Of a DNA stretch of 64,000 nt, positions 3,672-63,349 are shown one piece after another. Source of the stretch: a virus; the IMG/VR virus record IMGVR_UViG_3300048575_000193. One strand, 5' to 3'. The position numbers and the translations under genes are program-made. The notes beneath the pieces were generated by a model, which did no database searches, was not told the DNA's origin, and saw nothing but the letters and a program-made list of their open reading frames with translations. The stretch's first letter is position 1. Each line of letters begins with the position of its first letter.

Positions 3672-4301
3672 ATGCCCATCGTCGTTGAGCTTGCGACTCT
3701 CCACAACATTGACTTCGCGATCGATGCCGATCGCGACTTCCCCACCCTCTCCGGTTATGTGGATTATCTCAACGGAGGCTCTCAAGGCTTCGCCCTTGTC
3801 ATTGACACGTCCTTCCTCATCCGCCTTCTCTACGTCTTCGACGCCCGAAGGCTGAGGCAGCTTGAAAACGATAGGTGCTACGTCAGACATGACTCCGAAC
3901 GCATCTACGGCTTTAGGAGCCGCGACGGATTGCGTGAGTTTGACATCGACACATGGCGGGCCTGGGCACGAGAGCGGTCGGACGCCAACGTTACCATGAA
4001 CGAGATGCGCTTCGGTACAGCCAGGACGGCAAGGCGCCCGGACGATGATGGTCCAAGGACGCGCCCGGTAGCGCCCCGACGCCCTGCCCCGCCTCGAGGC
4101 CCCTTCGAGACAGCTCTCGTGGATCCGCCCAACGCGGTTTCTGGTCCTCGCGTGCGCATTCGGCCACGGCCCGGGGACATTGGTGACACTACACGACAGC
4201 GTCTCGACGCAATGGCAGGGATCTTCACAGATAACGCGCCGGACGAATCAGACCTCAGACCGCCACCTGACTTCTTCGACCACCTCAAAGACGAAACCTG
4301 A
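3672..4301 (+). CDS. Hypothetical protein with C-terminal PPP-DFFDHLKDET tag
   Basis: 209 aa ORF starting 8 nt after a GGTGTAG box. Confidence 0.7.
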   Translation: MPIVVELATLHNIDFAIDADRDFPTLSGYVDYLNGGSQGFALVIDTSFLIRLLYVFDARRLRQLENDRCYVRHDSERIYGFRSRDGLREFDIDTWRAWARERSDANVTMNEMRFGTARTARRPDDDGPRTRPVAPRRPAPPRGPFETALVDPPNAVSGPRVRIRPRPGDIGDTTRQRLDAMAGIFTDNAPDESDLRPPPDFFDHLKDET

Positions 4302-4313
4302 AAGGACCTGAAC

Positions 4314-4811
4314 ATGAGACTAGCTCTACTTGCATTGATTGCTGTTGCCTTGGTTGGTTGCTCGGCTGACACGGGGGAAGCCCAGGAGGAGAGTATTGGG
4401 ACGGCCCAAGCGGCTCTCCGAACCCATATCGGCGTCGTGTACGACGGCACCGGCTATTGTGACAACTACAACTGCTACATCCGCAACGGAACCGAGGGGG
4501 GTGTTCGCCAGATCTGCACGAGCGCTTGTGCGTCTCAAGACCGTCTTGCGAACCGAACCTACGCATCATCGCCCCAATGTGACTACGTGTCCTCCACGGT
4601 ACAGCCCGTGTCAACATGCAGCACGGGAGGCCCTGAGCCCGATCCAAGCGAATACACCCAGTGGGAGTGTGACTGCTATTGCCTCCTGAATTCCGGAGGA
4701 GGGGGAACGCCTCCAGGGACGCAACAGCCCAACCCCGCCGAGTGTATCATCTCGCCCGGAAGCTATTGCCCCGCCTGGTGCAGCCGATGCACCACGACTT
4801 CGACGTATTGA
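4314..4811 (+). CDS. Cys-rich lipoprotein
   Basis: Signal peptide with lipobox-like VGC, then ESIGTAQAAL and many Cys. Confidence 0.75.
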   Translation: MRLALLALIAVALVGCSADTGEAQEESIGTAQAALRTHIGVVYDGTGYCDNYNCYIRNGTEGGVRQICTSACASQDRLANRTYASSPQCDYVSSTVQPVSTCSTGGPEPDPSEYTQWECDCYCLLNSGGGGTPPGTQQPNPAECIISPGSYCPAWCSRCTTTSTY

Positions 4812-4817
4812 GGGCTG

Positions 4818-5012
4818 CTATCCCTTGGCCGCAAGGGCCATCGGGATTTGGATGGGGCTTTGTACGACCTCGACACGCGCAGGGAGCACACGGATGCTTG
4901 ATTGCGTCCTTTGCCGGTCCAAGACAGCATCGTGAAAGACGGTGAGTAACCTCACCGTCTCCTGCGTTTCCTCAACAACCTCATGCAGGGCGTCCGCAAT
5001 GGGGTCGCTCAT
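4818..5012 (-). CDS. Hypothetical protein
   Basis: 64 aa, ATGA-type overlap with the upstream gene. Confidence 0.5.
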   Translation of the reverse strand: MSDPIADALHEVVEETQETVRLLTVFHDAVLDRQRTQSSIRVLPARVEVVQSPIQIPMALAAKG

Positions 5013-5584
5013 TGGCCACCTCTCTTGGGCGGACGTGCCGTCTCTTTGTTGTCAATGATGTCCATCGCGGTTAGCACCCCTCGAAGGAGCATGTTCGTCG
5101 CTGCCTGTGCATCCCTTAACATAGCGACCTCCTCAAGGATTCGCTTCTGTTCTGCGTCTACCTCTGCCCGGCTTATTCCGGCTCGAGGCTCTTCTCGAAG
5201 TCGATCGTCCATACGATCGATGCGTTCTTGAAAGCTACGAAGGCGGCTGTTCAACCGCTCCTCGTACTCCTGCTGAATCTCCATGTTGACCGTCCCTGAC
5301 CGCCCTGCGCGGGCGACAAGGCGCGTCAGCCACGCCGGGGGATCGTCCTCCCAAGAGTCGATTTCCTTCCGAAGCCGAGCCAGCGTCGTGTCAAGGATCC
5401 CTACCGTGTGGAAGAGACCCGTAGCAGGAGCAGTGTTGTGCGGGGGCGACCCGAGCCTCTCCTCAAGGATGGCTAGCCTGTTCCTGATGTCCCGAAAGGT
5501 GGCGAAGACCGTGGCGAGGGCCGTGGCGCCACCCGTCAACAATCCAGAAGCCAGGGACTCAACGATCTTCGTCCAGTCAGACAT
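5009..5584 (-). CDS. Membrane-anchored coiled-coil protein
   Basis: N-terminal hydrophobic segment (LASGLLTGGATALATVF) followed by heptad-rich helices. Confidence 0.65.
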   Translation of the reverse strand: MSDWTKIVESLASGLLTGGATALATVFATFRDIRNRLAILEERLGSPPHNTAPATGLFHTVGILDTTLARLRKEIDSWEDDPPAWLTRLVARAGRSGTVNMEIQQEYEERLNSRLRSFQERIDRMDDRLREEPRAGISRAEVDAEQKRILEEVAMLRDAQAATNMLLRGVLTAMDIIDNKETARPPKRGGQ

Positions 5585-6128
5585 CCTCTACTCCGTCAAG
5601 GCAGGATAGGCATCTCGGTTCGTATGCTTCAGCTCCCCCCACAAGTACAGTCTGACTGCTAGCCACAATCCGGTATGACCTGTTCGCGCCCTCACATCCA
5701 CAAACAGCACATCGTGCCCGGAGCTTCTTGACCTCATCAGCAAGCGCCAAGAAGGCAGGCATGGGGCCGAAGGGTTCACCCTTTGACGTGAGATCCAAGC
5801 CAGCAAGGATCACATGCGCGCCGTCATGCACCGCCTTCGCGATGACCGGCACAGCGTCAAGGGTCAAGAATTGCGCCTCGTCGAGAGCGATCACCTTGGC
5901 ATCGGTAGGCCAGGGCGTTCCATCCAAACGGACTATCTCCGCAGGGATGCGGGCGCCGTCATGGGAGACGATCTTGGTTGCGCTGTAGCGCGTATCGTTT
6001 TCAGGTTTCAAGACCCGGACGTCAACGCCTGCTTCCTTGAGCGCAAGGACCTTGGAGATCAGTGAGCGGGTCTTGCCCGCGAACATACATCCAGCGATAA
6101 CGTCTAGGCGGCCAGTGTGTGGTTGCAT
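5577..6128 (-). CDS. tdk: Thymidine kinase
   Basis: GCMFAGKT P-loop, IALDEAQF, LAGLDLTSKGEPF, CAVC...YEPRCLSC Zn site. Confidence 0.92.
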   Translation of the reverse strand: MQPHTGRLDVIAGCMFAGKTRSLISKVLALKEAGVDVRVLKPENDTRYSATKIVSHDGARIPAEIVRLDGTPWPTDAKVIALDEAQFLTLDAVPVIAKAVHDGAHVILAGLDLTSKGEPFGPMPAFLALADEVKKLRARCAVCGCEGANRSYRIVASSQTVLVGGAEAYEPRCLSCLDGVEDV

Positions 6129-6162
6129 TCTAGATCAATACACCACACAAGAGGGCTATTAG

Positions 6163-7260
6163 CTAAAGGGCCGAAGAGACAAGCTCAATGCAGAGGGAGT
6201 CAAGAGCACGGTTGTCCGGCCTTGCGGGAAGAGGGCTGGTTAGAACGATCTGGGCAAGCTCGTAGTTTTGCTGGTTTGCCCAAGCAACGAGTCTCTCGTA
6301 GCTCCAGGCGCCGTTACGCACCTCAAGAAGCTCGGCCGCGTCTGGGCGCCGTACCCGCAAGACGCCCTCCGTTAGGATCTCCCGGCACATTCGCAAGAGC
6401 CGGATGAGGTGCATGGCGTGCTTCGTATCGTAGCCCCACTTTGCCTCCAAGGCGGCCCGCGCAGGGTTTCGCTCCTTGAGCCACTTCTGATACTTCTTCC
6501 ACTCCCGGGCCTTCGCCGTGAATTGACGCTCCCGCTTGAGATACTCGATGAAGTTCTCGTCGAAACCGAAGGACCTCGCCGCGCCCTTCCACAAGTCGTC
6601 CATGTGGATCTGCATCTCGGTGAGCATCTCGAACATGGCCTCCTTGATCTCGATCCGGTAGGCGGGCTCAAGGTCTTGGAGGAAATTCATGTTCCATTGG
6701 TCGAGCTTCTTCTGGATCCCGGCGTTGACGGCCTCCAATTGCTCCGTTGGGATCTCCGGTTGGGGCGGCAATTCAAAGTCCGATCGCTCCGGCTTCTTGG
6801 TTGGAGGATTCTTGAGCCATCGGTAGTGCCCCTCAATCCGCCGCATCTGCGACGCGGCATACCCCGAGAACGTTCTCAAGGCCAAACGCGAGAGGAACAT
6901 GTCTCGGCATTCAAAAAGCCGCTTCGATGTCGCCGTCACGAACAGGTGATCCGAAGGATCCGTGAAGATGATCTCCAAGGCGTTCGGATTGCAAACCGCC
7001 GCGAGCTTCATGAACTTGCGAAGCTCGAAGATGACGAAGTCCGGGGCCACGTCGTCAGAGGTTGTCGCCGACGCCGTCTGATCGAAGTGAAGGTCGTAGC
7101 CGAGGTAGTACTCCTTGGGCGCGATGCAGATCCCCCGGATGTCCATATCGGATGTCGGGAGGTTCGTGCCATAGGCGTGCGATCCGTGGCGCGTAAGGTA
7201 GAAGGTCCGGTCTTTCACCCAGGGGAGCGCCCCTGGAGGCATGTTCCATTCGAATGTCAT
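6163..7260 (-). CDS. Pol-beta superfamily nucleotidyltransferase (RlaP-like)
   Basis: GSHAYGTNLPTSDMDIRG motif, CNPNALEI, YDTKHAMHLIRLL. Start taken at MTFEW. Confidence 0.85.
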   Translation of the reverse strand: MTFEWNMPPGALPWVKDRTFYLTRHGSHAYGTNLPTSDMDIRGICIAPKEYYLGYDLHFDQTASATTSDDVAPDFVIFELRKFMKLAAVCNPNALEIIFTDPSDHLFVTATSKRLFECRDMFLSRLALRTFSGYAASQMRRIEGHYRWLKNPPTKKPERSDFELPPQPEIPTEQLEAVNAGIQKKLDQWNMNFLQDLEPAYRIEIKEAMFEMLTEMQIHMDDLWKGAARSFGFDENFIEYLKRERQFTAKAREWKKYQKWLKERNPARAALEAKWGYDTKHAMHLIRLLRMCREILTEGVLRVRRPDAAELLEVRNGAWSYERLVAWANQQNYELAQIVLTSPLPARPDNRALDSLCIELVSSAL

Positions 7261-7930: not shown

Positions 7931-9514
7931 CTATTTGTAGGATTCGATCGAGGCAACCCAACTCGAGGCGTCGCCGGAGACGAAGGCCCCGATGACGTTG
8001 AAGACCTCGTCCGAGAACCCGCCGACCTGAAGGATCCCAGGACGGCTTGGGACCTGGTGCGTGGACGAAGGCGTCACGTCGATGCAGATCAGCTTGGCCT
8101 TGGGGTTACGCTTGACGATCTGCTGCCACTCCGTGAGCATCCCAGTACCGTGCCCGTACTCACGATCAACCCATGACTCGTAGTCCGAGATGAAGATGAC
8201 CACATCCGGCGCGGCGTTCTCCTTGTTGAGCAAGGCCAGGGGCGCCGAGCAGTTGGTCCCGCCTCCGCCGATGGACGAAAGCTTCTGCGCGTTCGTCATG
8301 ACCGAATCGCGAGGATTGACCTTGACGCCAACCACGCTCTGCTCGAAGGGGATGACCCTCGCAGTCTGGTTGGTCCTCAAGACGCTCGCTGCAACCAAGG
8401 CTGCAACGTCAATGCAGGTGACCTTCGAAGGCGTCTTGCTGCCCTGACGTCCCGTGACGTAGGCTGACATGGAGCCCGAAACGTCCGGGCAAATCACGAC
8501 CGAACCCTCGAACACCGGGATGTTCTTGGTAGCAGCCTCCAAGGCGTCCTGCAACGCCAGGGTGATCTCCGTGGGCATCTCCGTACCCACGTTCTTGTAG
8601 GCCGCCAGGAGCTGGTAGGGGAAGCAGTGTGCCTTCGCAACCTCTTCCGCCGACCCGAGCTTGTCGGCCAGCTTCTTGGTGAGCCTCTTGTCCGAGAAGA
8701 CCCCGTGACGCAGGAACGTGTTGAGGTTCATACGGAGCTGCGTCCACGTAGCCCTCTCCGCAAGCTGCTTCCAGCCCTTCTCCGTGATGCCCTCAACACC
8801 GACGAGCATCTCGAAGGGGACACCCTTCTCCGGGACAGCAACCTTGGCCGGGTCCGCCTTGAATGCCAGGAAGCTCTTGACCTCTTCCGGAACATGCTCC
8901 GACGTCACCAGCTCCTGCCCCTGGAACTTGAACTTGTCCTTCCCAAGCAGGTAGGCATAGAGCGCCGAACGCTCCACCGTCCCCGGAACCGGCCGGATGA
9001 GCTTGATAACGTCCGCCATCGACGGATCGTTACCCGTGGAGTTCGTGAAGACCACTCCGTCCTTACGGCTTTCGAACCAGCTCTGGATCATCCTCTTCGG
9101 ACGCGTTCCGAAGCTCTTGCGCCCCAACGCGCCAGACCGGATGACCTGGACGAAGTTGCGGAGCATCTTGCCGTTGTTGATGACACGCGGGAAGATGGGC
9201 TCGAGGAGCGCCCCATTCATCGCAGCCAGGTAGGCCGCAAGAACCGCAGGCATGTCCTTCATGAAGCCCTTCTCGTGTGCGTAGAGCGCCACCTTCGCAA
9301 CGTACTCCGGATCGCACGCGACGGCTGCGTTCAAGACGGCCTCGAGCTGCATCTTGTCCGACACGTAGTACGTATTGGACAGGCACCCCGTCACCGCCAA
9401 TTGAGCCAGGGCCATCTTTGGCGTCATCTGGTACGCCGCCCCACCCGCCTCGTTGACCGTGTCCGCCGCCTGAACAGACGGCTTCGCCCCTGGGAACAGA
9501 ATCTTGCTTGCCAT
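7931..9514 (-). CDS. rsr: Ro60 / TROVE-vWA RNA-binding protein
   Basis: NEAGGAAY, LAQLAVTGCL, KDMPAVL, LRMNLNTF, MIDAS-like PDVSGSM, GGGTNCS, FISDYESW. SD GGAGG 5 nt before ATG 9514. Confidence 0.93.
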   Translation of the reverse strand: MASKILFPGAKPSVQAADTVNEAGGAAYQMTPKMALAQLAVTGCLSNTYYVSDKMQLEAVLNAAVACDPEYVAKVALYAHEKGFMKDMPAVLAAYLAAMNGALLEPIFPRVINNGKMLRNFVQVIRSGALGRKSFGTRPKRMIQSWFESRKDGVVFTNSTGNDPSMADVIKLIRPVPGTVERSALYAYLLGKDKFKFQGQELVTSEHVPEEVKSFLAFKADPAKVAVPEKGVPFEMLVGVEGITEKGWKQLAERATWTQLRMNLNTFLRHGVFSDKRLTKKLADKLGSAEEVAKAHCFPYQLLAAYKNVGTEMPTEITLALQDALEAATKNIPVFEGSVVICPDVSGSMSAYVTGRQGSKTPSKVTCIDVAALVAASVLRTNQTARVIPFEQSVVGVKVNPRDSVMTNAQKLSSIGGGGTNCSAPLALLNKENAAPDVVIFISDYESWVDREYGHGTGMLTEWQQIVKRNPKAKLICIDVTPSSTHQVPSRPGILQVGGFSDEVFNVIGAFVSGDASSWVASIESYK

Positions 9515-9526
9515 TTGATCCTCCAT

Positions 9527-9588
9527 GCGGCCGAAGCCGCCAAGTGTTGCCAGCATGCCCGTGTGGGCCAAAGTTACGGCACGGGCAT
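9527..9588 (-). promoter_or_regulatory. Two-hairpin structured 5' leader of Ro60
   Basis: 9-bp stem ATGCCCGTG/CACGGGCAT and GCGGC-TTCG-GCCGC tetraloop hairpin abutting the SD. Confidence 0.6.
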
Positions 9589-11335: not shown

Positions 11336-11620
11336 ATGATGAACCTCGAAGCCACCCACAACGCCAACATCAAGAGCACCATCAAAGCCAAGGCCGAGGC
11401 AGCCCACGCAGCGTACCCCCAGTACAAAAACCACTGGAACGGCTGGGCCTTGGTTCAAGTGACCAAGATCATCAAGACCAAATTCGGGGTGGCCTTCTTG
11501 AAGGGCGAGATGAGCCTTGGGAAGTACGAGCCCGAGACGGGCTTCTGGACGGTCTACAGCGTGAGCAACAAGATCGATACCTCGGTCAACGCCAAGCACG
11601 TCAAGGTCATCTCGGCCTAG
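11336..11620 (+). CDS. Hypothetical protein (MMNLEA start)
   Basis: 94 aa, leaderless-type start. Confidence 0.7.
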   Translation: MMNLEATHNANIKSTIKAKAEAAHAAYPQYKNHWNGWALVQVTKIIKTKFGVAFLKGEMSLGKYEPETGFWTVYSVSNKIDTSVNAKHVKVISA

Positions 11621-11868
11621 AGCCTACCCTCATAGTAGTCCTGCCACATTGCATCCCAGAATTCATGGTGCTCCTCAGCGCAAGCCCGACACAAGGGGAC
11701 GGGCGCATTCGGATCCGGAGGAGGCTCCCCTATGAGGTGGTCGAAGAAGTCAGGCTCGGGTTGAGCATACTCCGTCCTGGCATCCTCAAGCTGAATGCCC
11801 TCGGCTGCCCCACACCGGGCGCACACGGCGTCAGGATCTGCCAAGCAACCTCTGACGCAAGGCATCAC
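11617..11868 (-). CDS. Small Cys-rich protein with internal DFFDHL motif
   Basis: CxxC pairs, PEPDFFDHLIGE. Confidence 0.6.
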   Translation of the reverse strand: MMPCVRGCLADPDAVCARCGAAEGIQLEDARTEYAQPEPDFFDHLIGEPPPDPNAPVPLCRACAEEHHEFWDAMWQDYYEGRL

Positions 11869-12241
11869 CGTCCCCCTTGCAGACCGTCAGCATCCCCGCC
11901 AACCCGCCTCGGTTCCAAACCCGCACAACGTCATGACTCCCGACCGTCTCGACCGTGACGCTGGAGACCAGCCCAGCATCCTTGCCCGTGGGCTCGGGCA
12001 AGATGTCGTCCGCCATGAGCCTATCGAACGCCGTTTGCTCTTCCCGTGCCATCTCATCCTCAATGGGAGCGAAGTCCTCCCGGAATTGTGTAGCGTCTAC
12101 GGCCGACACCCTTCCGTTGTTTCGGATCGTGATGTAAGGGTACCCGTACATGTCCTCTTCGGTTGTATCGATTACCTCGTAGACCACGCCTGGGAAGTGT
12201 GGATTCTCCCAGAGGCTACCTACTGTGACGGGTGTCGGCAT
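11831..12241 (-). CDS. Hypothetical protein (VGSLW domain + AFDRLMADD motif)
   Basis: 136 aa. Confidence 0.65.
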   Translation of the reverse strand: MPTPVTVGSLWENPHFPGVVYEVIDTTEEDMYGYPYITIRNNGRVSAVDATQFREDFAPIEDEMAREEQTAFDRLMADDILPEPTGKDAGLVSSVTVETVGSHDVVRVWNRGGLAGMLTVCKGDGDALRQRLLGRS

Positions 12242-12290
12242 GGTGCCCTCGGCAGGAGTTGAACCCGCGACGCGCGGTTCTTGGACATCT
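12241..12290 (-). pseudogene. 3' half of a tRNA (T arm + acceptor 3' strand + ACCA) with no adjacent 5' half
   Basis: GCGGG-TTCAACT-CCTGC CGAGGGC A CCA, preceded by GTCCAAG AACCG. Confidence 0.7.
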
Positions 12291-12294
12291 CATG

Positions 12295-12386
12295 TGGTGG
12301 GCTCGGAGGGATTCGAACCCTCGTTGGCGGTATTACCCTGCGGCTGGGTTAAAATCAGCTACCTTCGACCACTAGGTGACGAGCCC
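12295..12386 (-). tRNA. Type II tRNA with Tyr-like body and anticodon TTA (ochre suppressor), CCA encoded
   Basis: Acceptor GGGCTCG/CGAGCCC, A73, CCA. D arm ACC/GGT with AGTGG. Anticodon arm GCTGA-TT TTA AC-CCAGC. 20-nt variable arm. T arm GAGGG-TTCGAAT-CCCTC. Confidence 0.9.
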
Positions 12387-13038
12387 GCATGTGCTTCCGT
12401 ACTGCATTGTCTGATACACCGAGCGCACGTGCAACCGCCAAGAAAGATGACTCCCGGACACGCCTTAGAAGCTCTGCATCCGGGGGCCACTCCGCCTTTG
12501 GGGGCTGGTTTCGAGCCTTAACCGAGCACGACTTGCAAGCCGTGCTTCGACGTTGGATCACGGCACCGCAAGAGCACCTCTTGTGATCCTTGTAGATGCG
12601 CCGGTTCCCACCACAATAGGTCTCCGTTTGGGAATCGCAGTTGGGACACAGGAAGCGCAAATTGGTGATCCTGTGATCCGTGCGTACGCCGTTCACGTGA
12701 TCTAACCGAAGAACTAAGGGGCGCCCATTCCACTCTGGGTCACGTCCACAAAGGGCGCACGTGTAGGGGATCAGGCGCTCTCGAAGCACAACCCGTTTGA
12801 CGACACTTGTAGCATGTACGCCATTTTCGATCAGCACTTGGGAGGATCCGACTTTCGGAAGGACCCTCCCAGCCCCGTTCCAATGGGACGTGTCAAGCCC
12901 AAGCCTGGCCGCTTCTCTTTTGACCAGCTCGACATTATTCCCCCCGACCGCCCGACCCAACAGGCGAACAAGATTTGAAGGAGACCGGCTAAGAGCCGCA
13001 AGCCGCGTGAACTCGACGTCATCACAGAAATAGCTCAT
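12355..13038 (-). CDS. HNH endonuclease (free-standing, homing-type)
   Basis: CALC, LRLDHVNGVRTDHRITNLRFLCPNCDSQT, C-terminal HTH-like LAVARALGVSDNAVRK. Overlaps the tRNA 5' end by 32 nt. Confidence 0.9.
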   Translation of the reverse strand: MSYFCDDVEFTRLAALSRSPSNLVRLLGRAVGGNNVELVKREAARLGLDTSHWNGAGRVLPKVGSSQVLIENGVHATSVVKRVVLRERLIPYTCALCGRDPEWNGRPLVLRLDHVNGVRTDHRITNLRFLCPNCDSQTETYCGGNRRIYKDHKRCSCGAVIQRRSTACKSCSVKARNQPPKAEWPPDAELLRRVRESSFLAVARALGVSDNAVRKHMRARHLVVEGS

Positions 13039-13089
13039 ACCCAGAACATAACACCGTTCTGGGTTCGAGTCAACCGATGACGATTTCCG

Positions 13090-13114
13090 TTGATCGTAAG
13101 AAGGCTCCGGCATT
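13090..13114 (+). promoter_or_regulatory. Class I motif TTGATC-N12-CGGCATT
   Basis: 8 nt before ATG 13123. Confidence 0.75.
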
Positions 13115-13122
13115 AACCCACC

Positions 13123-14825: not shown

Positions 14826-15227
14826 CTACACCGGAGAGCTGTCAACCTCGTCGAGAAGTTTTCCTTCGGGGAACGCGTGCGAGAATACTCTGGTTGAGGT
14901 CTTGGCGCGTTTGAGCCGGATGACCATATCAAAGGTGCCCTTTCCCAGGTTGGGGTCGTCATGAAAGGCAAGGGCTTCGTCGAAGGGACCCTCCTTGTCG
15001 AGCATCTCCTGATTGCGCAAGCGTCCTGCGGCATTGCCATAGGCGTCCCAGTTAGCCGGGTAGGGTCGGACATCGAAGCCGAGCTTTCTGCCGACCTTGG
15101 CGGCGATACGGTCAGCCCCATGCGCATCACCATGGACGAGGATCGTCCCCTTGGGGTACTTGGCGAGCACCTTGGCCACGAGAGCCTCGTCACACCATTC
15201 TCGTGAGCCGGTCACTAGAATCTTCAT
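14826..15227 (-). CDS. SLOG family protein (DUF2493/YspA-like)
   Basis: KILVTGSREW, LVHGDAHGADRIA, GNAAGRLRNQEML, GKGTFDM. Confidence 0.85.
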   Translation of the reverse strand: MKILVTGSREWCDEALVAKVLAKYPKGTILVHGDAHGADRIAAKVGRKLGFDVRPYPANWDAYGNAAGRLRNQEMLDKEGPFDEALAFHDDPNLGKGTFDMVIRLKRAKTSTRVFSHAFPEGKLLDEVDSSPV

Positions 15228-15236
15228 GTTCAGCCC

Positions 15237-15253
15237 CTACACCAACGGTGTAG
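15237..15253. promoter_or_regulatory. Palindromic pair of class II boxes CTACACC-AAC-GGTGTAG between divergent genes
   Basis: 9 nt to ATG 15227 (-) and 8 nt to ATG 15262 (+). Confidence 0.7.
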
Positions 15254-15261
15254 AACCCCTC

Positions 15262-16797
15262 ATGCCTGCTGATAACCCTGTCCGTGGTGAGGTCTGGAGT
15301 ACACAATCGTTCGAGGGTAACACGATGCTCGGTTGTGTCGCCGCGATATCCTCGGACGGTGACACTGCTCTTCTTATTTCACAAACGGGCCGCAGCACAA
15401 GTATGCCCATCCGGTCCATGCTTCACATGTGGCGGCTCGCGCGAATCACGCCCATACCCCAAGAAGGCGAGATCCAACTCTGTGAAGCACAAGGCTGCCA
15501 AGAGGTCTCCTTCTTGCGGCAGTCCGTTCAGGGCGTCATACGGAGGGTCTGTCACCGGCACATCTCCATCAACCAGCCTACGTACTTCCCCGGGGACGAT
15601 CCCACGTCAACGGTGATCCCGGGCATAACCGCTGCTGCCTCTCGGGAGGAGTTCCCTCCAGGACCGAACCTTTCTTCTTGCCCGTCTTGCGGATCACACC
15701 TTGAGGGCGTCCGCTCAACGTGCCCCCAATGCCAGGCCCAATGGCAGACCCTTGATAGCTCGGTCCCGATGCAGCGTATGGGGGACGCCGTCTCCCAAGC
15801 TCGCCGTCGCCTACGGGTCAACGGCCGTAACGCTACCTTCGTTCGCATGGACGAATCCACGTGCAACCTTGTCGTCTTGGATAACAGCCAGATCCCCCTG
15901 CATGATAGCGGGGGGATGCGTACGCTCGTCACAAGAGGGACCGTTCATGGCGGCGGGCGTATGTTCGCTGGGCTCCCCGTCATAGTCAGCCCAGGCCCCG
16001 TAACGATCGTCGCTGCCAATACGACGAACATCACCATGCCTCAAGGCGATCAATTCATTCGCCTCACGGACTACGTCGCCTATGCGCATCATTCCTTCGG
16101 AGGCTCCGGGCGTATCCTTGACCGCGTAGGGCACCACGTAGGTTCGGAAAGGATCGTCGTCACCCAGGAGGACTTCGAGCGTGGCTTCCGGCCTATCGCC
16201 GACGTGGCGCCACCAAGCGGCTCTATGTGGAGGAACCCCCGATCGGACGGCTCCTTCATCACAGTGAACGGGCACGGTCAAGGCTTGGGCGCTCCTTGTC
16301 AAGTCAACGTCACGGACGAGGCTGGAACCCAGGGGACCATCCCGCTCATGGCCTTCGTGCGTGACTACATCCGGTTCGACGAGGAAGCTGCCCCGCCAAT
16401 CGGAAGCATTTGGGTGTGCCGAGGCAATGGAGCCCTCGTGGTCATCACCGATTCGGACGTCGTCGAAGGGATGCGCCACGTGGCCGTCCGTAACGCTGAC
16501 GGGCACATCTTACGGATGCTGATCCCAGACTTGTGGCGTAACTACACGCAAGTCGAAGAACGCGTGATTCCTCTTGAATGCCACGTGGGTGAAGAGTGGA
16601 TTGACCAAAAGGGAGTGAGCTACACGGTCGCCCTCCTTGACCCTGCTCTGGGCATAGCCACCCTCGAGGATTCAAACGGCATCCGTGTGCAAGCCTCCGC
16701 CAGGGCATTTCTTGAGGGCGGCACGTGGAAGCGTGTGGAGCGAAAGGACGCATTCGAACGACTTGCTAACGAGGACCCGTTTGGGTGGGGGGACTAA
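15262..16797 (+). CDS. Multi-domain hypothetical protein (repeated PxxGxxW units, Zn ribbons, C-terminal DAFERLANED tag)
   Basis: 511 aa. VRGEVW, PPSGSMW, PPIGSIW, HVGEEW, CPSC..CPQC. Confidence 0.75.
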   Translation: MPADNPVRGEVWSTQSFEGNTMLGCVAAISSDGDTALLISQTGRSTSMPIRSMLHMWRLARITPIPQEGEIQLCEAQGCQEVSFLRQSVQGVIRRVCHRHISINQPTYFPGDDPTSTVIPGITAAASREEFPPGPNLSSCPSCGSHLEGVRSTCPQCQAQWQTLDSSVPMQRMGDAVSQARRRLRVNGRNATFVRMDESTCNLVVLDNSQIPLHDSGGMRTLVTRGTVHGGGRMFAGLPVIVSPGPVTIVAANTTNITMPQGDQFIRLTDYVAYAHHSFGGSGRILDRVGHHVGSERIVVTQEDFERGFRPIADVAPPSGSMWRNPRSDGSFITVNGHGQGLGAPCQVNVTDEAGTQGTIPLMAFVRDYIRFDEEAAPPIGSIWVCRGNGALVVITDSDVVEGMRHVAVRNADGHILRMLIPDLWRNYTQVEERVIPLECHVGEEWIDQKGVSYTVALLDPALGIATLEDSNGIRVQASARAFLEGGTWKRVERKDAFERLANEDPFGWGD

Positions 16798-17748
16798 ATG
16801 CCGGTACGTGACCCGCAGATCGGTGAACGCTGGATTCTCAACACAGCAACCCGAGTCATCGCCGCACAAGACACTCCAGCAGTCGCCTTGATTCTAGCCC
16901 GGAGTGATACGAACGTCACGATCATGCAATTCGGGGCGACCCCGGATCGACACTGGATCATCCCGCTTGAGGAGTTCTTCTTCTGGTACAGCTACCTGGC
17001 CCAGCTAACAGGGCGTCAATTTCGCAGCAACACGGGTGACACCCTCGTGGTTGTCGACAGAGACGACGGGAGCACTATCACAATCAGAAGAGCTGACAAT
17101 GACGACCGTGCGACAACCATCTCGTACCAGCTCCACAACTTCCTTGATAGGTTCATCATTGAGGACGTCGTGCGCGCCACCACGCCTTTCGGCGACGTGA
17201 CCCTTGAGGTCCCTCGCGAGATCCGAGACCAGATCCAGCGTGGTCAAGTCCACGGCGTCTCGATGGGGACCAGCGTTCAGATGCAGCTATGTCCCATCTG
17301 CTTTGAGCCACATGAGCCGGGACAATGCACCACCCTCCAAGTCTCCGCGTTCCGGGACGATCCCCCACCTGAACCATCTGAGGGGGTCACTTACATTGTA
17401 AGCGGCAACCCGTCCGGCGCCTGGTATGACCACCCTGACGATATTGTGACCTTCTGGAGAGGGGCGTGGTCATTCACTCAGCCGCGCCTCGGGCAGCGCG
17501 CTCGCATCAACGAGCTTGGAATCGTGTGCCGCTACACGGCGTTAGGGTGGGTCGCTCTCGACGGAGCTGAGATCGTCATGGCCTACAATGGGGAGACGAA
17601 CCGCTTTGAGGAGACCCCGATAGAGCACCCACCGGGAGCGGCGCCTTTCACACAGGTCCCGCTTGTAGGCTTCCAACGAGTCGCTCCTCCGCAGCCTACG
17701 GTGGAACCCCGTGACATCTTCGACCGCCTCATGGATGACGATGACTGA
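16798..17748 (+). CDS. Hypothetical protein (PQIGERW unit, C-terminal DIFDRLMDDDD)
   Basis: 316 aa, in frame directly after the TAA of the previous gene. Confidence 0.75.
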   Translation: MPVRDPQIGERWILNTATRVIAAQDTPAVALILARSDTNVTIMQFGATPDRHWIIPLEEFFFWYSYLAQLTGRQFRSNTGDTLVVVDRDDGSTITIRRADNDDRATTISYQLHNFLDRFIIEDVVRATTPFGDVTLEVPREIRDQIQRGQVHGVSMGTSVQMQLCPICFEPHEPGQCTTLQVSAFRDDPPPEPSEGVTYIVSGNPSGAWYDHPDDIVTFWRGAWSFTQPRLGQRARINELGIVCRYTALGWVALDGAEIVMAYNGETNRFEETPIEHPPGAAPFTQVPLVGFQRVAPPQPTVEPRDIFDRLMDDDD

Positions 17749-18112
17749 CGTGCGCCCAGGGCAAGTCTGGCTCCGCAAGTACCCCGAGGGGCGTCCTCCC
17801 GAGGCTACGGTCCTTTCTGTGGACGCTGAGCACGTCTTCCTTGAGGGTGACGCAACCGCCTGGTGCACATCCGTCTTCCCGGTCCTGTTCAGCTTCATCC
17901 GAGACGACTCCGATATCTTCGATCGCCTCAAGGATGAGGAGCCCTTTCGGATGCGACCCGAGCCACCGCCCCCGCCTCCAAGACCGCTCACGGCAGCCCA
18001 GCAGATCGCTTACGAGATTGATCTTGAGATCCTTGCTCAGCTTGAGCAGGCAGCAATGATCCAGCCTAAGCCCAAAGACGCCTGGGACCTTCTTGAGGAG
18101 GACGACGCTTGA
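17741..18112 (+). CDS. Hypothetical protein (VRPGQVW unit, two tag copies)
   Basis: DIFDRLKDEE and DAWDLLEEDDA. Confidence 0.7.
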   Translation: MTDVRPGQVWLRKYPEGRPPEATVLSVDAEHVFLEGDATAWCTSVFPVLFSFIRDDSDIFDRLKDEEPFRMRPEPPPPPPRPLTAAQQIAYEIDLEILAQLEQAAMIQPKPKDAWDLLEEDDA

Positions 18113-25844: not shown

Positions 25845-25865
25845 TCACCCGCGAGGCTCGGCATA
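25841..25865 (+). promoter_or_regulatory. Class I motif TTGATC-N12-CGGCATA
   Basis: 8 nt before ATG 25874. Confidence 0.8.
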
Positions 25866-25873
25866 CTAGAGCC

Positions 25874-27220: not shown

Positions 27221-27909
27221 GAAAGACCCTCCGGCACCGGATCCTCAACATCTACGACCAAAACAAGTCGCACGACATCGACTTCGTCACCGTCGACCAG
27301 GCTACCCTACAGATCCTCGGCCCCGAGCCTATTGGTGACCTCATCGAGGTCCGTGTCTCGAATACGGACCTCCGGAGAGGCTTCATTCTCGTAGGCGCCC
27401 GGGGCTGGGTCTATGAGGGGCACGTCTGCTTCGACCCCAGAAAGCCGATCACGAAGGAATGCTGGCTTCGGGATTCCGAAGGCGTCATCCACCTCATGAA
27501 ACCCCGCATCGGCGTCGGCGTGCATTACGGGGAGGGCTACAACCTCCAACGACGCAACCTCGCGTCGTCCTACGACGATCCGCAGGAGCAGCACCTCTAC
27601 TACGAATGCGTGCTCTGCCACACCGTCGAAGAGGGTCAAATCTGGGCGCCCCCGGATATGCGCAAGTCTTACAGGATTGTGGCATCCCTAAGCACCATCG
27701 AAGAAGCCCCCGGAAGGATGGCCCGTATCCCCGTGGTTACGCTCGGGCTCCCCCGAAGCCCGTACCCACATAACGAGCCCGAATTCATCCAGGTCGCCCT
27801 CCCCGAATTGTACAACGATTGGAACTACGCGATCGTCGCCCCAACGCGGATGACCGCCGACCCCGTCCACACCGCTTACGACAAGCTCATGGACGAAGAC
27901 CTTTTCTAG
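27217..27909 (+). CDS. Hypothetical protein ending TAYDKLMDEDLF
   Basis: 230 aa, GTGA overlap. Confidence 0.75.
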   Translation: MRKTLRHRILNIYDQNKSHDIDFVTVDQATLQILGPEPIGDLIEVRVSNTDLRRGFILVGARGWVYEGHVCFDPRKPITKECWLRDSEGVIHLMKPRIGVGVHYGEGYNLQRRNLASSYDDPQEQHLYYECVLCHTVEEGQIWAPPDMRKSYRIVASLSTIEEAPGRMARIPVVTLGLPRSPYPHNEPEFIQVALPELYNDWNYAIVAPTRMTADPVHTAYDKLMDEDLF

Positions 27910-27918
27910 GAGATCAGC

Positions 27919-30213: not shown

Positions 30214-30735
30214 GTGCATATCTCAGACGTCGACTTCACACCAAGAAAAGGCCAATGGTGGGCACGACTAAAGCCCCTCTCCCTCGCCCGTATCCTCGAA
30301 GACCTCGAACCCAACGGCTGCCTCTCCATTGAGTTCTTCGCCCCCGACGAACCCTACGGCAACGTCTGGAGCCTCGTCCCCCCCATAGGCTACCCCATCT
30401 TCCGCTACCTCTGGTGCCACGAAGAACGCCCCATCGAATGGTTCCGCTACGCTAGAACCGACGACGTCTTCGTCGTCCAGAAAACCGGCAACCTCTTCTT
30501 CACCGTCCGGGACCCCGATAGAAACATCTGCCTCTGCCTTTCGGATACGCCCCTCACCGACGACGATATCATCTCAAGCCGCCTCGTCCAACAAGGCCCC
30601 GAACCACCCCAAGGCCCCACCCTCTTCGACAAGCTCCGCGACGACAACCACTCCGCACCCGAACCACCCCTAAACCCTACAACCCCTCTCGAAATCGAAC
30701 CCCTCCCAATTGATCCCACCGACCCAGACGCATAG
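30214..30735 (+). CDS. Hypothetical protein (PRKGQWW unit, TLFDKLRDD tag)
   Basis: 173 aa, GTG 8 nt after a GGTGTAG box. Confidence 0.65.
   Translation: MHISDVDFTPRKGQWWARLKPLSLARILEDLEPNGCLSIEFFAPDEPYGNVWSLVPPIGYPIFRYLWCHEERPIEWFRYARTDDVFVVQKTGNLFFTVRDPDRNICLCLSDTPLTDDDIISSRLVQQGPEPPQGPTLFDKLRDDNHSAPEPPLNPTTPLEIEPLPIDPTDPDA
30710..30734 (+). promoter_or_regulatory. Class I motif variant TTGATC-N12-ACGCATA
   Basis: 8 nt before ATG 30743. Confidence 0.6.
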
Positions 30736-33236: not shown

Positions 33237-33671
33237 CTACACCGTGGGGTCGTTTTCGATGAGGCGGGCGTAGAGGTCGGGGTAGGTTTGGATAGCATGG
33301 CAGCCCTTTGGGGTTGTGCGGTAGAAGCCTCCTGGGCGTGTAGGTTGGGCGAGGCCGAGGGCTATGGCGTGTTTGAGGGCGATGGACTTGTAGTGGGCGA
33401 GGGCTTCGTCGTTGACGCCGCGACGGAGGAGAGTTTTGACGGGTTCTGAGATGTAGGGGGTCCCGGTGGTGCCTCTTGGGACGTTGGGGTCTGGGAGGAT
33501 AGCGGCGCCGAAGGCATAGCCTATGTAGGGGATGACGTCCCTATGTGTGTTGATATCGAACCAGCGGAAGCGTCTTAGGTGGTTGGCGAGGTAGCGGGCG
33601 TCTTTTGGGTTGAGGCTGATGACGTCGGCGTAGTGGGCGGCTCTTTGGATAAGGTTTTGGAGGCGTGTCAC
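33237..33671 (-). CDS. Hypothetical protein
   Basis: 144 aa, stop in a GGTGTAG box. Confidence 0.65.
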   Translation of the reverse strand: MTRLQNLIQRAAHYADVISLNPKDARYLANHLRRFRWFDINTHRDVIPYIGYAFGAAILPDPNVPRGTTGTPYISEPVKTLLRRGVNDEALAHYKSIALKHAIALGLAQPTRPGGFYRTTPKGCHAIQTYPDLYARLIENDPTV

Positions 33672-33985
33672 GGGTCGTCCTCCTCTTCGAGAAGCTTCTC
33701 GAAGAAGTCACTAGTCGGCACGGGCCAAGGAGGGCTACCTCTTGTGGGGCTGCTCGGGTGTAGCACGACGAGGGCGATGTCCATTTTGCCGAGGTACCAT
33801 CGGTAGAGGACGCCCAGGTGTTCGGTTTTGTCTTGGACTTTCTCGACGGCGAGGCGGTTAGCTTCTGGGGATTGGGCTAAGCCCCAGTGTAGGCAAGGGC
33901 TGTAGTTGCCGTAGGGGTCGAGGGCGTTGATGTAGCCGGGGATGTCGCGTGAGGGATTGGGGCATTCGTAGTAGCTTATGGGCAT
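33668..33985 (-). CDS. Hypothetical protein ending DFFEKLLEEEDDP
   Basis: 105 aa. Confidence 0.7.
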   Translation of the reverse strand: MPISYYECPNPSRDIPGYINALDPYGNYSPCLHWGLAQSPEANRLAVEKVQDKTEHLGVLYRWYLGKMDIALVVLHPSSPTRGSPPWPVPTSDFFEKLLEEEDDP

Positions 33986-34395
33986 TAGAAGAGGTCCTCG
34001 TCCATGAGCTTATCGTAGGCGTCGGGTTCCTTCACGGGGGGCTTCTTGGGCGCTTGTAGGGGCGTCTTGGGGGGCGCCCCGGGCTCTTGCATCCATGGAG
34101 GGGGCGTGAGGTTGCCTCCGAAGCGGTCGCTTAGGAAGATGTAGAATTCAAGGTCATATCGGAAGTCGTATGCGCCTCGGGCGATGTCACGCCACACCAC
34201 GTGGATGACGTCGTGTGGAAAGGCGGCTGTAGCCCGATTCACGGCATCCCTAGCGGCGACCTCGTCCATGACGTACCATCTAGGTTCAGAGGTGATGAAA
34301 AACCTTGAGCCTACGCATTCGACGTGGCGCACACGGTTCCGATCGACCCGGAACAGCCCCGATATGCGTCCTCCTTCGTGAAAGCACGGGTTCAT
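33985..34395 (-). CDS. Hypothetical protein ending DAYDKLMDEDLF
   Basis: 136 aa. Confidence 0.7.
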   Translation of the reverse strand: MNPCFHEGGRISGLFRVDRNRVRHVECVGSRFFITSEPRWYVMDEVAARDAVNRATAAFPHDVIHVVWRDIARGAYDFRYDLEFYIFLSDRFGGNLTPPPWMQEPGAPPKTPLQAPKKPPVKEPDAYDKLMDEDLF

Positions 34396-43121: not shown

Positions 43122-43772
43122 TTAAATCCAATCTACCTCGAGGTGCTCGAAGAAGTCCTCTGGAGGCTTCGGCGGCGGTGGCGGCAAGGGCGGAGCCTTC
43201 GGAAGCGTGAATCCGTCCGTGTTGTTGTCTACGATGATCGCGAATTCAACCTGACGGTGGCCTAGTTTGGTGAGCTGGCGTTCCAATCCGTCAATGTCGA
43301 ATTGGAGGATGTCCACGAAGGCGAAGAAGAGCTTGCGTCCGCCGAGGGCCTCGCTTGCGACGCGGTAGATCTCGTCGAGGACGTCCCTCCAGTGTGACTC
43401 CGCTCGAATGGCCGCCATCATGTCCTCTGCGGCGTCGTCAGAGGAGTAGTATGGGACGGCGTTCGGATGGATATCGCCATCCTCGTCATAGACGCGCCGC
43501 CTTTGCCCAGGCTTGACGATCAAGCGAGCCCGGTCTTGGAAGAGGCTTGTGACGAGGCGCTGGATCTCTTCGCTTAGGTGCGTTTCTTTCGAGACGGCCT
43601 CTTGGGCCTTGAGCGCAAGGATACACACGAGGTCGTGGCCCTCGAAGTCTACGTCGTAGACGGGGATCCCAACCGCCCCGCCTTGGCCGATGTATGCGCG
43701 GACGTTTTCAACCGTGTCCTGGTAGACGCGTTGAGGCGGGCGGATCGTTGGGAGGAAGTCAAGGCTCGGCAT
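43122..43772 (-). CDS. Hypothetical protein ending PPPPPKPPEDFFEHLEVDWI
   Basis: 216 aa. Confidence 0.75.
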   Translation of the reverse strand: MPSLDFLPTIRPPQRVYQDTVENVRAYIGQGGAVGIPVYDVDFEGHDLVCILALKAQEAVSKETHLSEEIQRLVTSLFQDRARLIVKPGQRRRVYDEDGDIHPNAVPYYSSDDAAEDMMAAIRAESHWRDVLDEIYRVASEALGGRKLFFAFVDILQFDIDGLERQLTKLGHRQVEFAIIVDNNTDGFTLPKAPPLPPPPPKPPEDFFEHLEVDWI

Positions 43773-61132: not shown

Positions 61133-61135
61133 GAT

Positions 61136-61690: not shown

Positions 61691-61698
61691 GCGGTGAC

Positions 61699-61723
61699 TA
61701 TGCCGATGGAGCTAGGGGATCAA
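61699..61723 (-). promoter_or_regulatory. Class I motif TTGATC-N12-CGGCATA
   Basis: 8 nt before ATG 61690. Confidence 0.8.
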
Positions 61724-61914
61724 CGAGAATCTGCTCCGGCGTCTTCAGGCTTCCAGCAGTCACAAGGCCCCCAATACGCCCCGAAGCAATACTGGTAGCC
61801 ATCGTAGCCCAACGTGCAGGAGCAACGCTGCCACGTGCCCCTTTCGCAAACCTGCGGGGGATCGTCTGGGCCACATGCCGTGAGGAGTAAGGCCAGGATC
61901 AAGAGTCGCTTCAT
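61720..61914 (-). CDS. Small Cys-rich lipoprotein
   Basis: MKRLLILALLLTAC lipobox, CxC/CDC motifs. Confidence 0.7.
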   Translation of the reverse strand: MKRLLILALLLTACGPDDPPQVCERGTWQRCSCTLGYDGYQYCFGAYWGPCDCWKPEDAGADSR

Positions 61915-62024
61915 CGCAGCTCCCCCTTCTCGTCGTAGACGATCGTCCGCGCCCATGGGAGCAGGCCCTGCGCTCCCATCTTGGGCGCTCGGGCACACTT
62001 CACAAAGGACCTCAATGTCCGGCC

Positions 62025-62912
62025 TCATGGCATCTCCAACACACGGTAGGAGGGCTTCCCTACAAGTCCCTCCATCACTTTGTCGAGGGCCTCATGGAGG
62101 TCCCAGGCGTCTTGTACGCGCTCGGATGCCGTCGTCGCGAGGCAACCCCGTAGGAGGCGCGCTAAGGGGGAGGGTACCGCCGATGGCAGCTCGTTGGTGA
62201 CAACGTTACCGCCGAGAAGCAAGACCCCGAGCTTGGCCGCCATGTAGATGTCCAAGGCAGGCGTAGGGAGTCGCTTCGCAAAGACCTCTGGCGGGTAGTA
62301 GTCCCGGAACCGCTTGACGATGACCTTGATGCTCTGCTTGTCCTTGAGCCGCGAAGAGTAACACCAATCGATGATCTTGGCGCCCCGCTCGGTCGGGTGG
62401 ACCAGGACGTGGGGAGGAAGCAGCGCGGCATGGACGAATCCAACGCTGTGCGCATAGCCAATCCCAGCGAGGATGCGCTTGAAGATCCAGGCGAAGTCAC
62501 GGATGTCGAGCCCGCTCGGATGGGCCGTCATGACCTCCTCAAGGGTGACCATCCCCTCCGCCCGGATCAAGACGTGTGTGGCTAAGTCGTCGTAGCTCGC
62601 CGGGAAGGAGATGAGCTTGGGGAAGTACCGGAGGAACTTCTCATCCGGAAGATTTGGAGGTCGGATGACCGTGAGGGCCGTCTTTTCTGCCAGCATGAGA
62701 TCCGTATCGGCGGTCCAGCGCTGCCGTTTGATGATGACGGGCTCGCGTGTCTCCCCGTCATCTGCCTCAAGCTGCTCGAAGAAGCCCCCGCCTGTGTTGG
62801 TCTTCGGCGCATGAATGACCTCCCCCATACGAAGAGCGCAGACGTCACCGTTGAATTCAGGCTTGCTGTCGTCGATCTCTACGTCGTGGCCTGAGTACTT
62901 TATCGTTGTCAT
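62025..62912 (-). CDS. Protein kinase-fold protein with atypical catalytic loop
   Basis: VIIKR, AEKTAL, VHAALLPPHV, IIDWCY, PPEV, DIYMAA. Confidence 0.8.
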   Translation of the reverse strand: MTTIKYSGHDVEIDDSKPEFNGDVCALRMGEVIHAPKTNTGGGFFEQLEADDGETREPVIIKRQRWTADTDLMLAEKTALTVIRPPNLPDEKFLRYFPKLISFPASYDDLATHVLIRAEGMVTLEEVMTAHPSGLDIRDFAWIFKRILAGIGYAHSVGFVHAALLPPHVLVHPTERGAKIIDWCYSSRLKDKQSIKVIVKRFRDYYPPEVFAKRLPTPALDIYMAAKLGVLLLGGNVVTNELPSAVPSPLARLLRGCLATTASERVQDAWDLHEALDKVMEGLVGKPSYRVLEMP

Positions 62913-63349
62913 GATTCCGCCGTCAGGTGATCGAAGAATCCACCTTCAGCTACACCGTCGACCCGCTCAACCCGCCCGTAGAGCGTCACGGTGGCAACGT
63001 GGAAGCCCGCGTTAAGCGCCTCCTGTTCGCGATTGATATCGTCCGCCGTGTCAGGTCCCTCCAAGGAGAAGCCTCGAACCTTGGCGACCAGCTCTTCGGG
63101 GATCTGGGCAAGGACCTCTGCGATGGACGGCTTGAAAAACCCAGGGTAGCCGTAGGTGTGTAGCGTTCGGATTCGCCCCACGATCTCCGTTGCCTGAACC
63201 TCTCCGTCAAGGACAGGATTCCACGTGAAGGCCACCTTGCGGGTGTCAATCCACTTGATGCAGTGGAGCTTGCCGTCTCGGTGAATCAGAGGACGGATGG
63301 TCTTGAGCATCTCACTGATGCGCGCGTCGGTAATCTTGGGGATATTCAT
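62909..63349 (-). CDS. Hypothetical protein ending GGFFDHLTAES
   Basis: 146 aa. Confidence 0.75.
   Translation of the reverse strand: MNIPKITDARISEMLKTIRPLIHRDGKLHCIKWIDTRKVAFTWNPVLDGEVQATEIVGRIRTLHTYGYPGFFKPSIAEVLAQIPEELVAKVRGFSLEGPDTADDINREQEALNAGFHVATVTLYGRVERVDGVAEGGFFDHLTAES

Follow-up and report, generated by a model that had tools for sequence, protein, structure and literature searches.

A genome-specific acidic-aromatic peptide on dissimilar proteins of a huge-phage clade: a candidate docking tag

Introduction

Short peptides that recruit unrelated proteins to a common hub are known for the sliding clamps. In phages T4 and RB69, gp43, gp55 and gp33 bind the gp45-type trimeric clamp through C-terminal tails described as 'hydrophobic and acidic', which are interchangeable and linker-borne, remain functional when placed internally and are read by a single phage-encoded hub (PMC2988020). 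The bacterial clamp DnaN is bound through a five-residue motif, Q-phi-x-[LM]-[FL] or QL[SD]LF (PMC11139829), to which the MuC sequences of phage Mu, QHDLF and QPDLF, are related (PMC12867686). Here, we describe a short acidic-aromatic peptide, hereafter the tag, that recurs on otherwise dissimilar proteins encoded by a 64,000-nucleotide stretch of viral DNA (the window; IMG/VR record IMGVR_UViG_3300048575_000193), and we follow it through the rest of the phage and its relatives. The original prediction, made from the window, was of one tag on about 13 proteins that would dock them on one partner, and it knew of no description of such a motif. Our literature search likewise found no description of this exact motif, although the principle is established (PMC2988020; PMC11139829).

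The window corresponds, in reverse complement, to bases 231,008-295,007 of one 312,295-bp virus record (G000; 59% GC), rated about 67% complete by IMG/VR and CheckV, in which 357 genes were called with a codon-usage model. A second assembly of the same phage (G001, 136 kb; 99.98% identical to G000 across 107 kb) lengthens this record by 29 kb at its left end. The relatives compared were the complete G007 (407 kb), G008 (437 kb) and G013 (448 kb), the incomplete record G006 (286 kb, about 60% complete) and the nearest GenBank record, LR745208 (485 kb, an uncultured huge phage). A 10.5-kb metagenomic contig, L260, came from one protein search and is syntenic with the window at 13-24 kb.

A shared peptide on the flexible ends of dissimilar proteins

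Some two dozen small, mutually unrelated proteins encoded by this phage bear the same acidic-aromatic peptide on a flexible end. The G000 motif is [DT]-hydrophobic-[FYW]-[DE]-[RHK]-L-x-acidic, preceded by a proline-rich linker (within 25 residues upstream, 16% of positions are proline, compared with 5.7% proteome-wide). The C-terminal bias that had been predicted is seen against shuffled proteomes, with 19-20 proteins compared with 0.3-1.5 expected. A loose regular expression for the core matches within the last 20 residues of 20 of the 357 called proteins, while shuffles of whole proteins give 1.5 +/- 1.3 (maximum 7 in 200) and shuffles of only the last 30 residues also give 1.5; a refined expression finds 19 C-terminally tagged proteins in the 312-kb record, with 0.32 expected. 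G000 has about six internal tags in addition, and a further three are found in the G001 extension (FFERLDEDLF, YFDKLLGDFF and AFDRLLDDDNMEP). The shared tag is thus real, but the figure of about 13 carriers was an undercount.

In the C-terminal tags, the distance from the aromatic residue to the stop is 8-15 residues. Tags also occur doubled, internally (36-250 residues away from the protein end) and at the N-terminus, the last in only two G007 proteins. The convincing tags are confined to the part of the G000 record from 171 to 304 kb. BLAST between the tagged proteins detected no similarity beyond the tails, and the carriers are not paralogues; by eye, several begin with a similar G-x-x-W element resembling a β-hairpin.

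The tag does not behave as copied DNA. Two tails reading AYDKLMDEDLF differ, as had been noted, only at GCC/GCT, GAT/GAC, GAG/GAA, CTC/CTT and TAA/TAG. Over all tag pairs, codon identity at identical residues is 47.0%, compared with 49.4% expected from the codon usage of the genome. Since this is no higher than codon usage predicts, there is no sign of DNA-level copying, and it is the peptide rather than the DNA that is kept, as originally proposed.

All 16 peptides quoted in the original prediction were found by a six-frame check in the open reading frames (ORFs) and frames given for them; 10 of these lie 10-16 residues from the stop codon and 14 are convincing tags. Two weak cases were dropped: GFFDEF (21711-22394) becomes GFVDYI in a 46%-identical orthologue, and SLWEAIRMSE (29185-29436) is without the acidic run. 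DIFDRLKDEE, TAFDRLMADD, GFFEQLEADD and DFFDHLIGE are internal copies. The tags within the window, in window coordinates, are as follows.

4269..4301, plus strand: DFFDHLKDET-stop, C-terminal tag of a 209-residue protein (gene 3672-4301, directly after a gene for a 1264-residue tail-fibre-like protein)
11725..11751, minus strand: DFFDHLIGE, internal tag of an 83-residue ORF (11617-11868), in a Pro-rich linker between two CxxC halves
11993..12034, minus strand: TAFDRLMADD, internal tag, residues 70-82 of 136 (gene 11831-12241)
16747..16797, plus strand: DAFERLANEDPFGWGD-stop, C-terminal tag of a 523-residue protein (gene 15226-16797)
17713..17748, plus strand: DIFDRLMDDDD-stop, C-terminal tag of a 316-residue DUF2793 protein (gene 16798-17748)
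17912..17953, plus strand: DIFDRLKDEE, first (internal) copy in a 133-residue protein (gene 17711-18112)
18077..18112, plus strand: DAWDLLEEDDA-stop, second (C-terminal) copy in the same 133-residue protein (gene 17711-18112)
27871..27909, plus strand: TAYDKLMDEDLF-stop, C-terminal tag of a 230-residue protein (gene 27217-27909, translationally coupled to a CCA-adding/poly(A) polymerase-like gene)
30619..30660, plus strand: TLFDKLRDD, 38 residues ahead of the stop in the Pro-rich tail of a 173-residue protein (gene 30214-30735)
33668..33709, minus strand: DFFEKLLEEEDDP-stop, C-terminal tag of a 105-residue protein (gene 33668-33985)
33985..34023, minus strand: DAYDKLMDEDLF-stop, C-terminal tag of a 94-residue protein (gene 33985-34269, or to 34395 from the longest start)
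43122..43157, minus strand: DFFEHLEVDWI-stop, C-terminal tag after a PPPPPKPP linker in a 216-residue protein (gene 43122-43772)
62745..62786, minus strand: GGFFEQLEADD, internal tag, residues 43-55, in the N-terminal linker of a 295-residue Ser/Thr-kinase-like protein (gene 62025-62912)
62909..62941, minus strand: GFFDHLTAES-stop, C-terminal tag of a 146-residue protein (gene 62909-63349, flanked by an adenylosuccinate-synthetase-like gene and the kinase gene)

It should be noted that the ORF at 11617-11868 was not called by the codon-usage gene caller; its GC content at third codon positions is 0.65, compared with a genome mean of 0.73.

Conservation in diverged orthologues

The tag is still present in orthologues whose bodies have fallen to 28-41% identity, which supports the expectation that it would be kept. 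In L260, the orthologue of the DUF2793 protein is 34-39% identical and DIFDRLMDDDD aligns with DVWDHLLDDDDDGV; that of the 133-residue protein is 32% identical, with KDAWDLLEEDDA aligned to KDAWILLMESHDD; and that of the 523-residue protein is 62% identical, with DAFERLANEDPFGWGD aligned to DALDKLTRDDPFGWGD.

Three tagged families are common to G000 and other lineages: a 165-residue protein, a Zn-ribbon protein and the kinase. The 165-residue protein (o_171499) has 28-33% identity by BLAST to its orthologues in three other lineages, and the tags read KTAFDHLLEGDDDEDTP, NRFTRLFNDDDD, PTAFDRIMQDDSFDEGEE and PNRFDRMMDDD across lineages. The Zn-ribbon proteins are 38% identical (tags SDAFDLLEESDGMFDEKA, NTRFDRVLEDD and QSRFDLMDEWDGTL). 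The kinases are 41% identical and carry the tag at one internal position, as GGFFEQLEADD here and as TRFDRILDDEDE and TVWDRLLDEGEE in two other lineages. A profile search with the 165-residue family gathered 208 clusters at 50% identity, and at least 106 of 137 full-length diverged representatives end in [TSN]-x-[YF]-[DSTE]-[RH]-[LI]-[LM]-x-DDD. In this family, the columns of the tag hold roughly as much information as those of the folded core, and the K/P/A linker between them carries little.

Lineage-specific flavours of the tag

Each tag-bearing genome has its own flavour of the tag, which we defined by a de novo search for words enriched in the last 20 residues and by flavour-specific patterns. 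A position-specific scoring matrix trained on these same tag instances, and hence circular, was used only to scan other genomes. The flavours, with the number of proteins that match and the number expected, are as follows.

G000: [DT]-hydrophobic-[FYW]-[DE]-[RHK]-L, 19 proteins, 0.32 expected
G008: P-T-[AVC]-W-[DE]-R-[LI]-L, 32 proteins, 0.27 expected
G007: P-[TS]-R-F-[DE]-R, 13 proteins, 0.10 expected
G013: S-R-F-D-[LM]-[IM], often followed by G-stop, 11 proteins, 0.02 expected
G006: T-R-F-[DE]-R, 6 proteins, 0.05 expected

The flavours are mutually exclusive, uniform inside one genome and different between genomes: the G007 expression, for example, has zero matches in G000 and G008. No tag flavour was found in LR745208. 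The carriers are almost wholly different proteins from genome to genome, nearly all without a Pfam or PHROG match, the exceptions being the kinase, the Zn ribbon, the DUF2793 protein, a radical-SAM enzyme in G008, a glucosaminidase-like protein in G007 and a protein with two transmembrane segments.

A candidate docking motif

Uniformity within genomes, difference between genomes, retention on diverged orthologues and spread on unrelated proteins form the pattern expected of a motif read by one co-evolving receptor, and the concerted change across unrelated proteins argues for such a receptor. On balance, we favour the view that the tag serves as a short linear motif for docking, portable between proteins, and that a single candidate receptor would read all copies. 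Because the flavours differ between closely related phages, this receptor is more likely to be phage-encoded and fast-evolving than to be a host protein; an actin-like filament or a host hub is possible as the reader. The portable peptide on dissimilar proteins proposed at the outset is supported by its conservation in diverged orthologues and its concerted change between lineages, but no partner could be pinned down among the candidates then named (a clamp, the capsid or portal, an AAA ATPase, RNA polymerase or a compartment).

Hydrophobic residues fall at the aromatic position, at +3 and +4 and often at +8/+9, with a capping D/T/S two residues before, a spacing that suggests an amphipathic helix of one to three turns with an acidic face. 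The tag starts with a D/T/S that would cap the helix and one variable residue, continues with an aromatic, an acidic and usually a basic residue, then with L/I and a second hydrophobic residue, and closes with an acidic run, often accompanied by a second hydrophobic pair (LF, FF or PF). It hangs on a Pro/Lys-rich flexible linker, mostly at the C-terminus and sometimes in an internal linker, at the N-terminus or in two copies. In the mechanism that we propose, each phage of the clade would place it on 1-6% of its proteins, mostly small, lineage-specific and without known function. One receptor would grip the hydrophobic face of the tag together with its acidic face, which would suit a basic rim, and this binding would gather or handle the tagged proteins as a group.

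Several points weigh against this interpretation. No receptor was found, and more than 100 candidate genes for it remain after presence/absence profiling. Across six genomes, 16 proteins are common only to the three genomes first classed as tag-rich, a contrast that fails because G013 proved to be tagged too; more than 50 proteins are common to all tag-bearing genomes, a number too large to single one out. The concerted change could also, in principle, have another source, either drift in mutation or composition that is shared within a genome or adaptation to a ligand other than a protein. Moreover, phage proteins in general commonly have acidic amphipathic tails, and a pattern scan of IMG/VR has similar tails, among the matches listed, on gp32-like single-stranded DNA-binding proteins (SSBs) and on a terminase-like protein; part of the signal may therefore be generic. 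Finally, the phage is uncultured, and any role of its tag is predicted from sequence.

A wider proposal builds on the docking motif, namely that the peptide is a genome-specific 'address code' of a large huge-phage clade, by which 1-6% of the proteome, mostly accessory proteins, would be routed to one fast-co-evolving receptor. This would be an undescribed sorting or recruitment system, which might serve, for example, the loading of an effector arsenal into the virion or assembly on a phage-built structure. We put it forward tentatively, and would sooner doubt it than assume it.

Alternative readings of the tag

Loading into the virion or procapsid is the alternative that survives best, although we consider it rather unlikely. 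The peptide would dock accessory proteins on the scaffold, protease or portal of the forming head (or tail), to be packaged and perhaps ejected with the DNA. The T4 capsid-targeting sequence is N-terminal, about 10 residues long and removed by the prohead protease, and encapsulin cargo peptides are rich in Gly, Ser and Leu rather than acidic. The tag shares with the T4 sequence, encapsulin cargo-loading peptides and microcompartment encapsulation peptides the character of one short, linker-borne, amphipathic peptide on many unrelated, fast-evolving proteins. Unlike the T4 sequence, it is C-terminal or internal, apart from the two G007 proteins noted above, and packaging is here a candidate role only; no conserved cleavage motif was found beside the tags. 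The clients resemble T4 internal proteins in being numerous, small, lineage-specific and without known function, and some look virion-related: the DUF2793 protein with its tail-fibre-like domain, the protein encoded just after the tail-fibre-like gene and the glucosaminidase-like client of G007. Another is a two-transmembrane-segment protein whose gene adjoins a transglycosylase gene. In a tagged 236-residue protein (G000 209693-210403; L012:11693-12403:-), a 33-residue stretch matches residues 30-62 of the major head protein with 67% identity (E = 2e-11). At 33-69% identity, scaffold, protease and portal are also variable enough for co-evolution with the tag.

On the other hand, no tag occurs in the replication and structural block at 0-170 kb, and the kinase and the radical-SAM enzyme among the clients lend no support to packaging. 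Between lineages with different tags, the major head protein keeps 93-94% identity, and so is an unlikely receptor. The box GGTGTAG has 150 copies in the record, usually 8-9 nucleotides ahead of the start codon of an accessory gene. It stands before 9 of 20 tagged genes, compared with 66 of 337 others, but not before the head genes, and so provides no argument from timing; most of its copies in the structural block are antisense. The tagged genes showed no link to the CGGCATA promoter class.

It is unlikely that the tags are a sliding-clamp-binding motif, by which accessory proteins would plug into the hydrophobic pocket of the divergent beta clamp of the phage, as gp43, gp55 and gp33 of T4 do with gp45, or bacterial and Mu proteins with DnaN. 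The phage does encode a DnaN-type clamp of 409 residues (G000 11893-13122; L001:11893-13122:+). Pfam does not recognise it, and Foldseek matches it to DnaN (E = 5e-18, template modelling score 0.66-0.74; AlphaFold2 model with a predicted local distance difference test score, pLDDT, of 77.7). A clamp-loader subunit is also encoded. The clamp is among the fastest-evolving conserved proteins, with 29-35% identity between lineages, and is not detected by BLAST in the tag-free LR745208.

The tag has several traits of clamp-binding peptides: a five-residue hydrophobic and acidic core in which the third position is acidic and the second and fifth are hydrophobic (the fifth being L/I/M), a terminal or disordered placement (here in Pro-rich linkers, terminal or internal) and, sometimes, two copies. 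The G013 flavour, R-F-D-[LM]-[IM], comes nearest, fitting four of the five positions of the bacterial motif (PMC11139829) and approaching the MuC sequences (PMC12867686). However, the canonical glutamine of position 1 occurs in none of the C-terminal tags of G000, G007, G013 and G006 and in 1 of 20 in G008; G000 has A/F/V/I/W/Y there, G008 has A/V/C, and G007, G013 and G006 all have R. Position 2 is aromatic (F/Y/W), not aliphatic as the clamp-binding motif requires, position 4 is basic in most lineages (R/H/K in G000, G007 and G008, with L/M only in G013 and a few G000 tags), and a long acidic run follows the core.

The comparison with the T4 and RB69 tails (PMC2988020) is divided in the same way. 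Both they and the tags are brief C-terminal peptides of hydrophobic and acidic character on variable, unstructured linkers of unrelated proteins, a likeness drawn here from sequence. Three replication or transcription proteins carry the tails in T4 and RB69, whereas here there are 11-32 carriers per genome, nearly all without known function, the clamp is of the DnaN type and the replication proteins are untagged: in five genomes, no lineage has the tag on its replicative polymerase, ligase, 5'-3' exonuclease or clamp loader. Among the clients there is a membrane protein, as well as a peptidoglycan-hydrolase-like protein and a radical-SAM enzyme, and several are envelope-related. Complex prediction with the phage clamp (5-row alignment) and the last 40 residues of the 94-residue tagged protein scored 0.08 against a mark of 0.32, which is uninformative either way.

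Two replication-module families bear, moreover, another conserved tail, [DE][DE][FWL]xx[ILM]Lxx[VIL]-stop. It reads EIDFESILGSV-stop on a 317-residue protein (G000 4584-5537; L001:4584-5537:+) and AEDFGDILNNV-stop on a 286-residue protein (5729-6589; L001:5729-6589:+), neither with a family match, and it is kept in the orthologues in most of five relatives, LR745208 included. This second tail, which we take to resemble the C-terminus of T4 gp32, is at a guess more likely than the tag to be the replisome-docking tail.

A degron or timing signal, through which a protease or adaptor of phage or host would clear a class of accessory proteins at a set time, seems to us quite improbable. Such a signal would be terminal, linker-borne, portable and carried by functionally unrelated proteins, as the tag is; membrane protein and enzymes alike could be substrates, and the lineage-specific flavours could track a phage adaptor. 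Yet the internal copies, which may lie as far from the end as noted above, and the doubled and N-terminal tags fit docking better than end-recognition, and no dedicated protease or adaptor gene was found in the phage. To our knowledge, strongly acidic tails are not typical signals for ClpX, Lon or Tsp.

We give little credence to the idea that the tag imitates the acidic tip of an SSB, competing for replisome or repair enzymes or recruiting to them. The tag resembles the tips of E. coli SSB, T4 gp32 and T7 gp2.5, and T7 gp4, in its acidic tail, aromatic or aliphatic anchors and disordered linker, but SSB tips have one or two carriers and many readers, while here the carriers are many. Among the matches listed in IMG/VR, gp32-like SSBs of unrelated low-GC uncultured phages (L041, L099 and L030) have the endings DAFDKLFDED-stop, DKFDKLFEEEDDDLPF-stop or DKFDKLFEEEADN..., which follow the pattern of the tag. 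Five of the 22 C-terminal tags of this phage (G000 and the G001 extension) end in LF or FF, and the 165-residue family has an SSB-like layout, its acidic tip being joined to a folded body by a K/P-rich linker. No OB-fold or SSB signature is detectable in that family, however, for which fold searches gave no assignment, and the Pfam SSB model has no match in the record; most tags are without a C-terminal aromatic carboxylate, and the clients, as far as can be told, are not DNA enzymes. Separately, a 122-residue Cys/His-rich protein of G006 (268132 region; L258) ends in DVGDDEIPF-stop, a bacterial SSB-tip-like sequence on a protein that does not resemble an SSB.

Least credible is the absence of any common binder, the tag being a generic terminus, acidic and amphipathic, that the disordered tails of a high-GC phage acquire easily and that acts within each protein (in solubility, autoinhibition or nucleic-acid mimicry): acidic-aromatic tails do occur on unrelated proteins in many viral contigs among the matches listed, but composition-matched tail shuffles give 0.02-0.6 matches compared with 6-32 observed, specific positions are kept (the aromatic, L/I and the capping residue), and the flavour is uniform inside a genome and different between genomes.

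Further searches and genomic context

Other searches added little to the comparison of tagged proteins. Back-translated IMG/VR searches with two of them returned no relatives, and the 230-residue protein had no match in 16 related records. In a degenerate DNA pattern scan of IMG/VR, unrelated proteins dominate among the matches listed; the scan pointed to the gp32-like tails, and no relatives were found. An AlphaFold2 model of the kinase, considered for docking of its internal tag in cis, was poor (mean pLDDT 52.6, below 50 for residues 1-120).

The first 170 kb of G000 is a plus-strand block of replication, recombination and structural genes. It encodes NAD ligase, RecD2, RecA, an intein-bearing clamp-loader subunit, the portal, the head protease, the 297-residue major head protein (more than 550 relatives in IMG/VR, on contigs of up to 529 kb) and a Volactin-type actin. 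The remainder of the record, including the window, consists chiefly of small genes on both strands. LAGLIDADG inteins split the clamp-loader subunit (G000 16132-18225) and a 1117-residue protein without an assigned function (27535-30888); in the G001 assembly, the clamp-loader gene is one uninterrupted ORF of 904 residues. The actin homologue is full length (G000 66840-67907; L004:12840-13907:+; PF25216, E = 1.7e-78) and has 54-67% identity across all relatives. Outside the G000 record, the G001 extension contains a GroEL-like gene for 552 residues (112707-114365; L250/L251), a label that rests on its C-terminal sequence and on 53-58% identical orthologues in the relatives, not on a family search.

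An RCC1-repeat propeller is encoded in the accessory region (G000 221334-222746; L013:5334-6746:-) and is absent from the relatives; as a receptor it was rejected, since it fits G000 only and is absent from G007. Among the accessory genes of the window, 7931-9571 (minus strand) encodes a Ro60-like vWA protein, 6163-7260 (minus) an RlaP-like nucleotidyltransferase and 25835-27220 (plus) a CCA-adding/poly(A)-polymerase-like enzyme. The adenylosuccinate-synthetase-like gene (window 63346-64629, minus strand; PF00709, E = 2.4e-52) and the Ser/Thr-kinase-like gene (62025-62912, minus strand) are linked in G000, G007 and G008.

Implications

The finding is an unusually large variant of the known principle of 'one hub, many tails', shared acidic tails being known in principle from T4 and T7. 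Should the tags prove to be clamp-binding or SSB-type tails, they would represent a large but ordinary expansion of a known mechanism. If one receptor does read them, the tag would mark a functional class among otherwise unannotatable proteins and would predict genes that act together. A synthetic tag peptide would then be a bait for the receptor, with the lineage flavours as natural specificity controls, and the hub principle would be extended from three T4 proteins to dozens per genome across a huge-phage clade.

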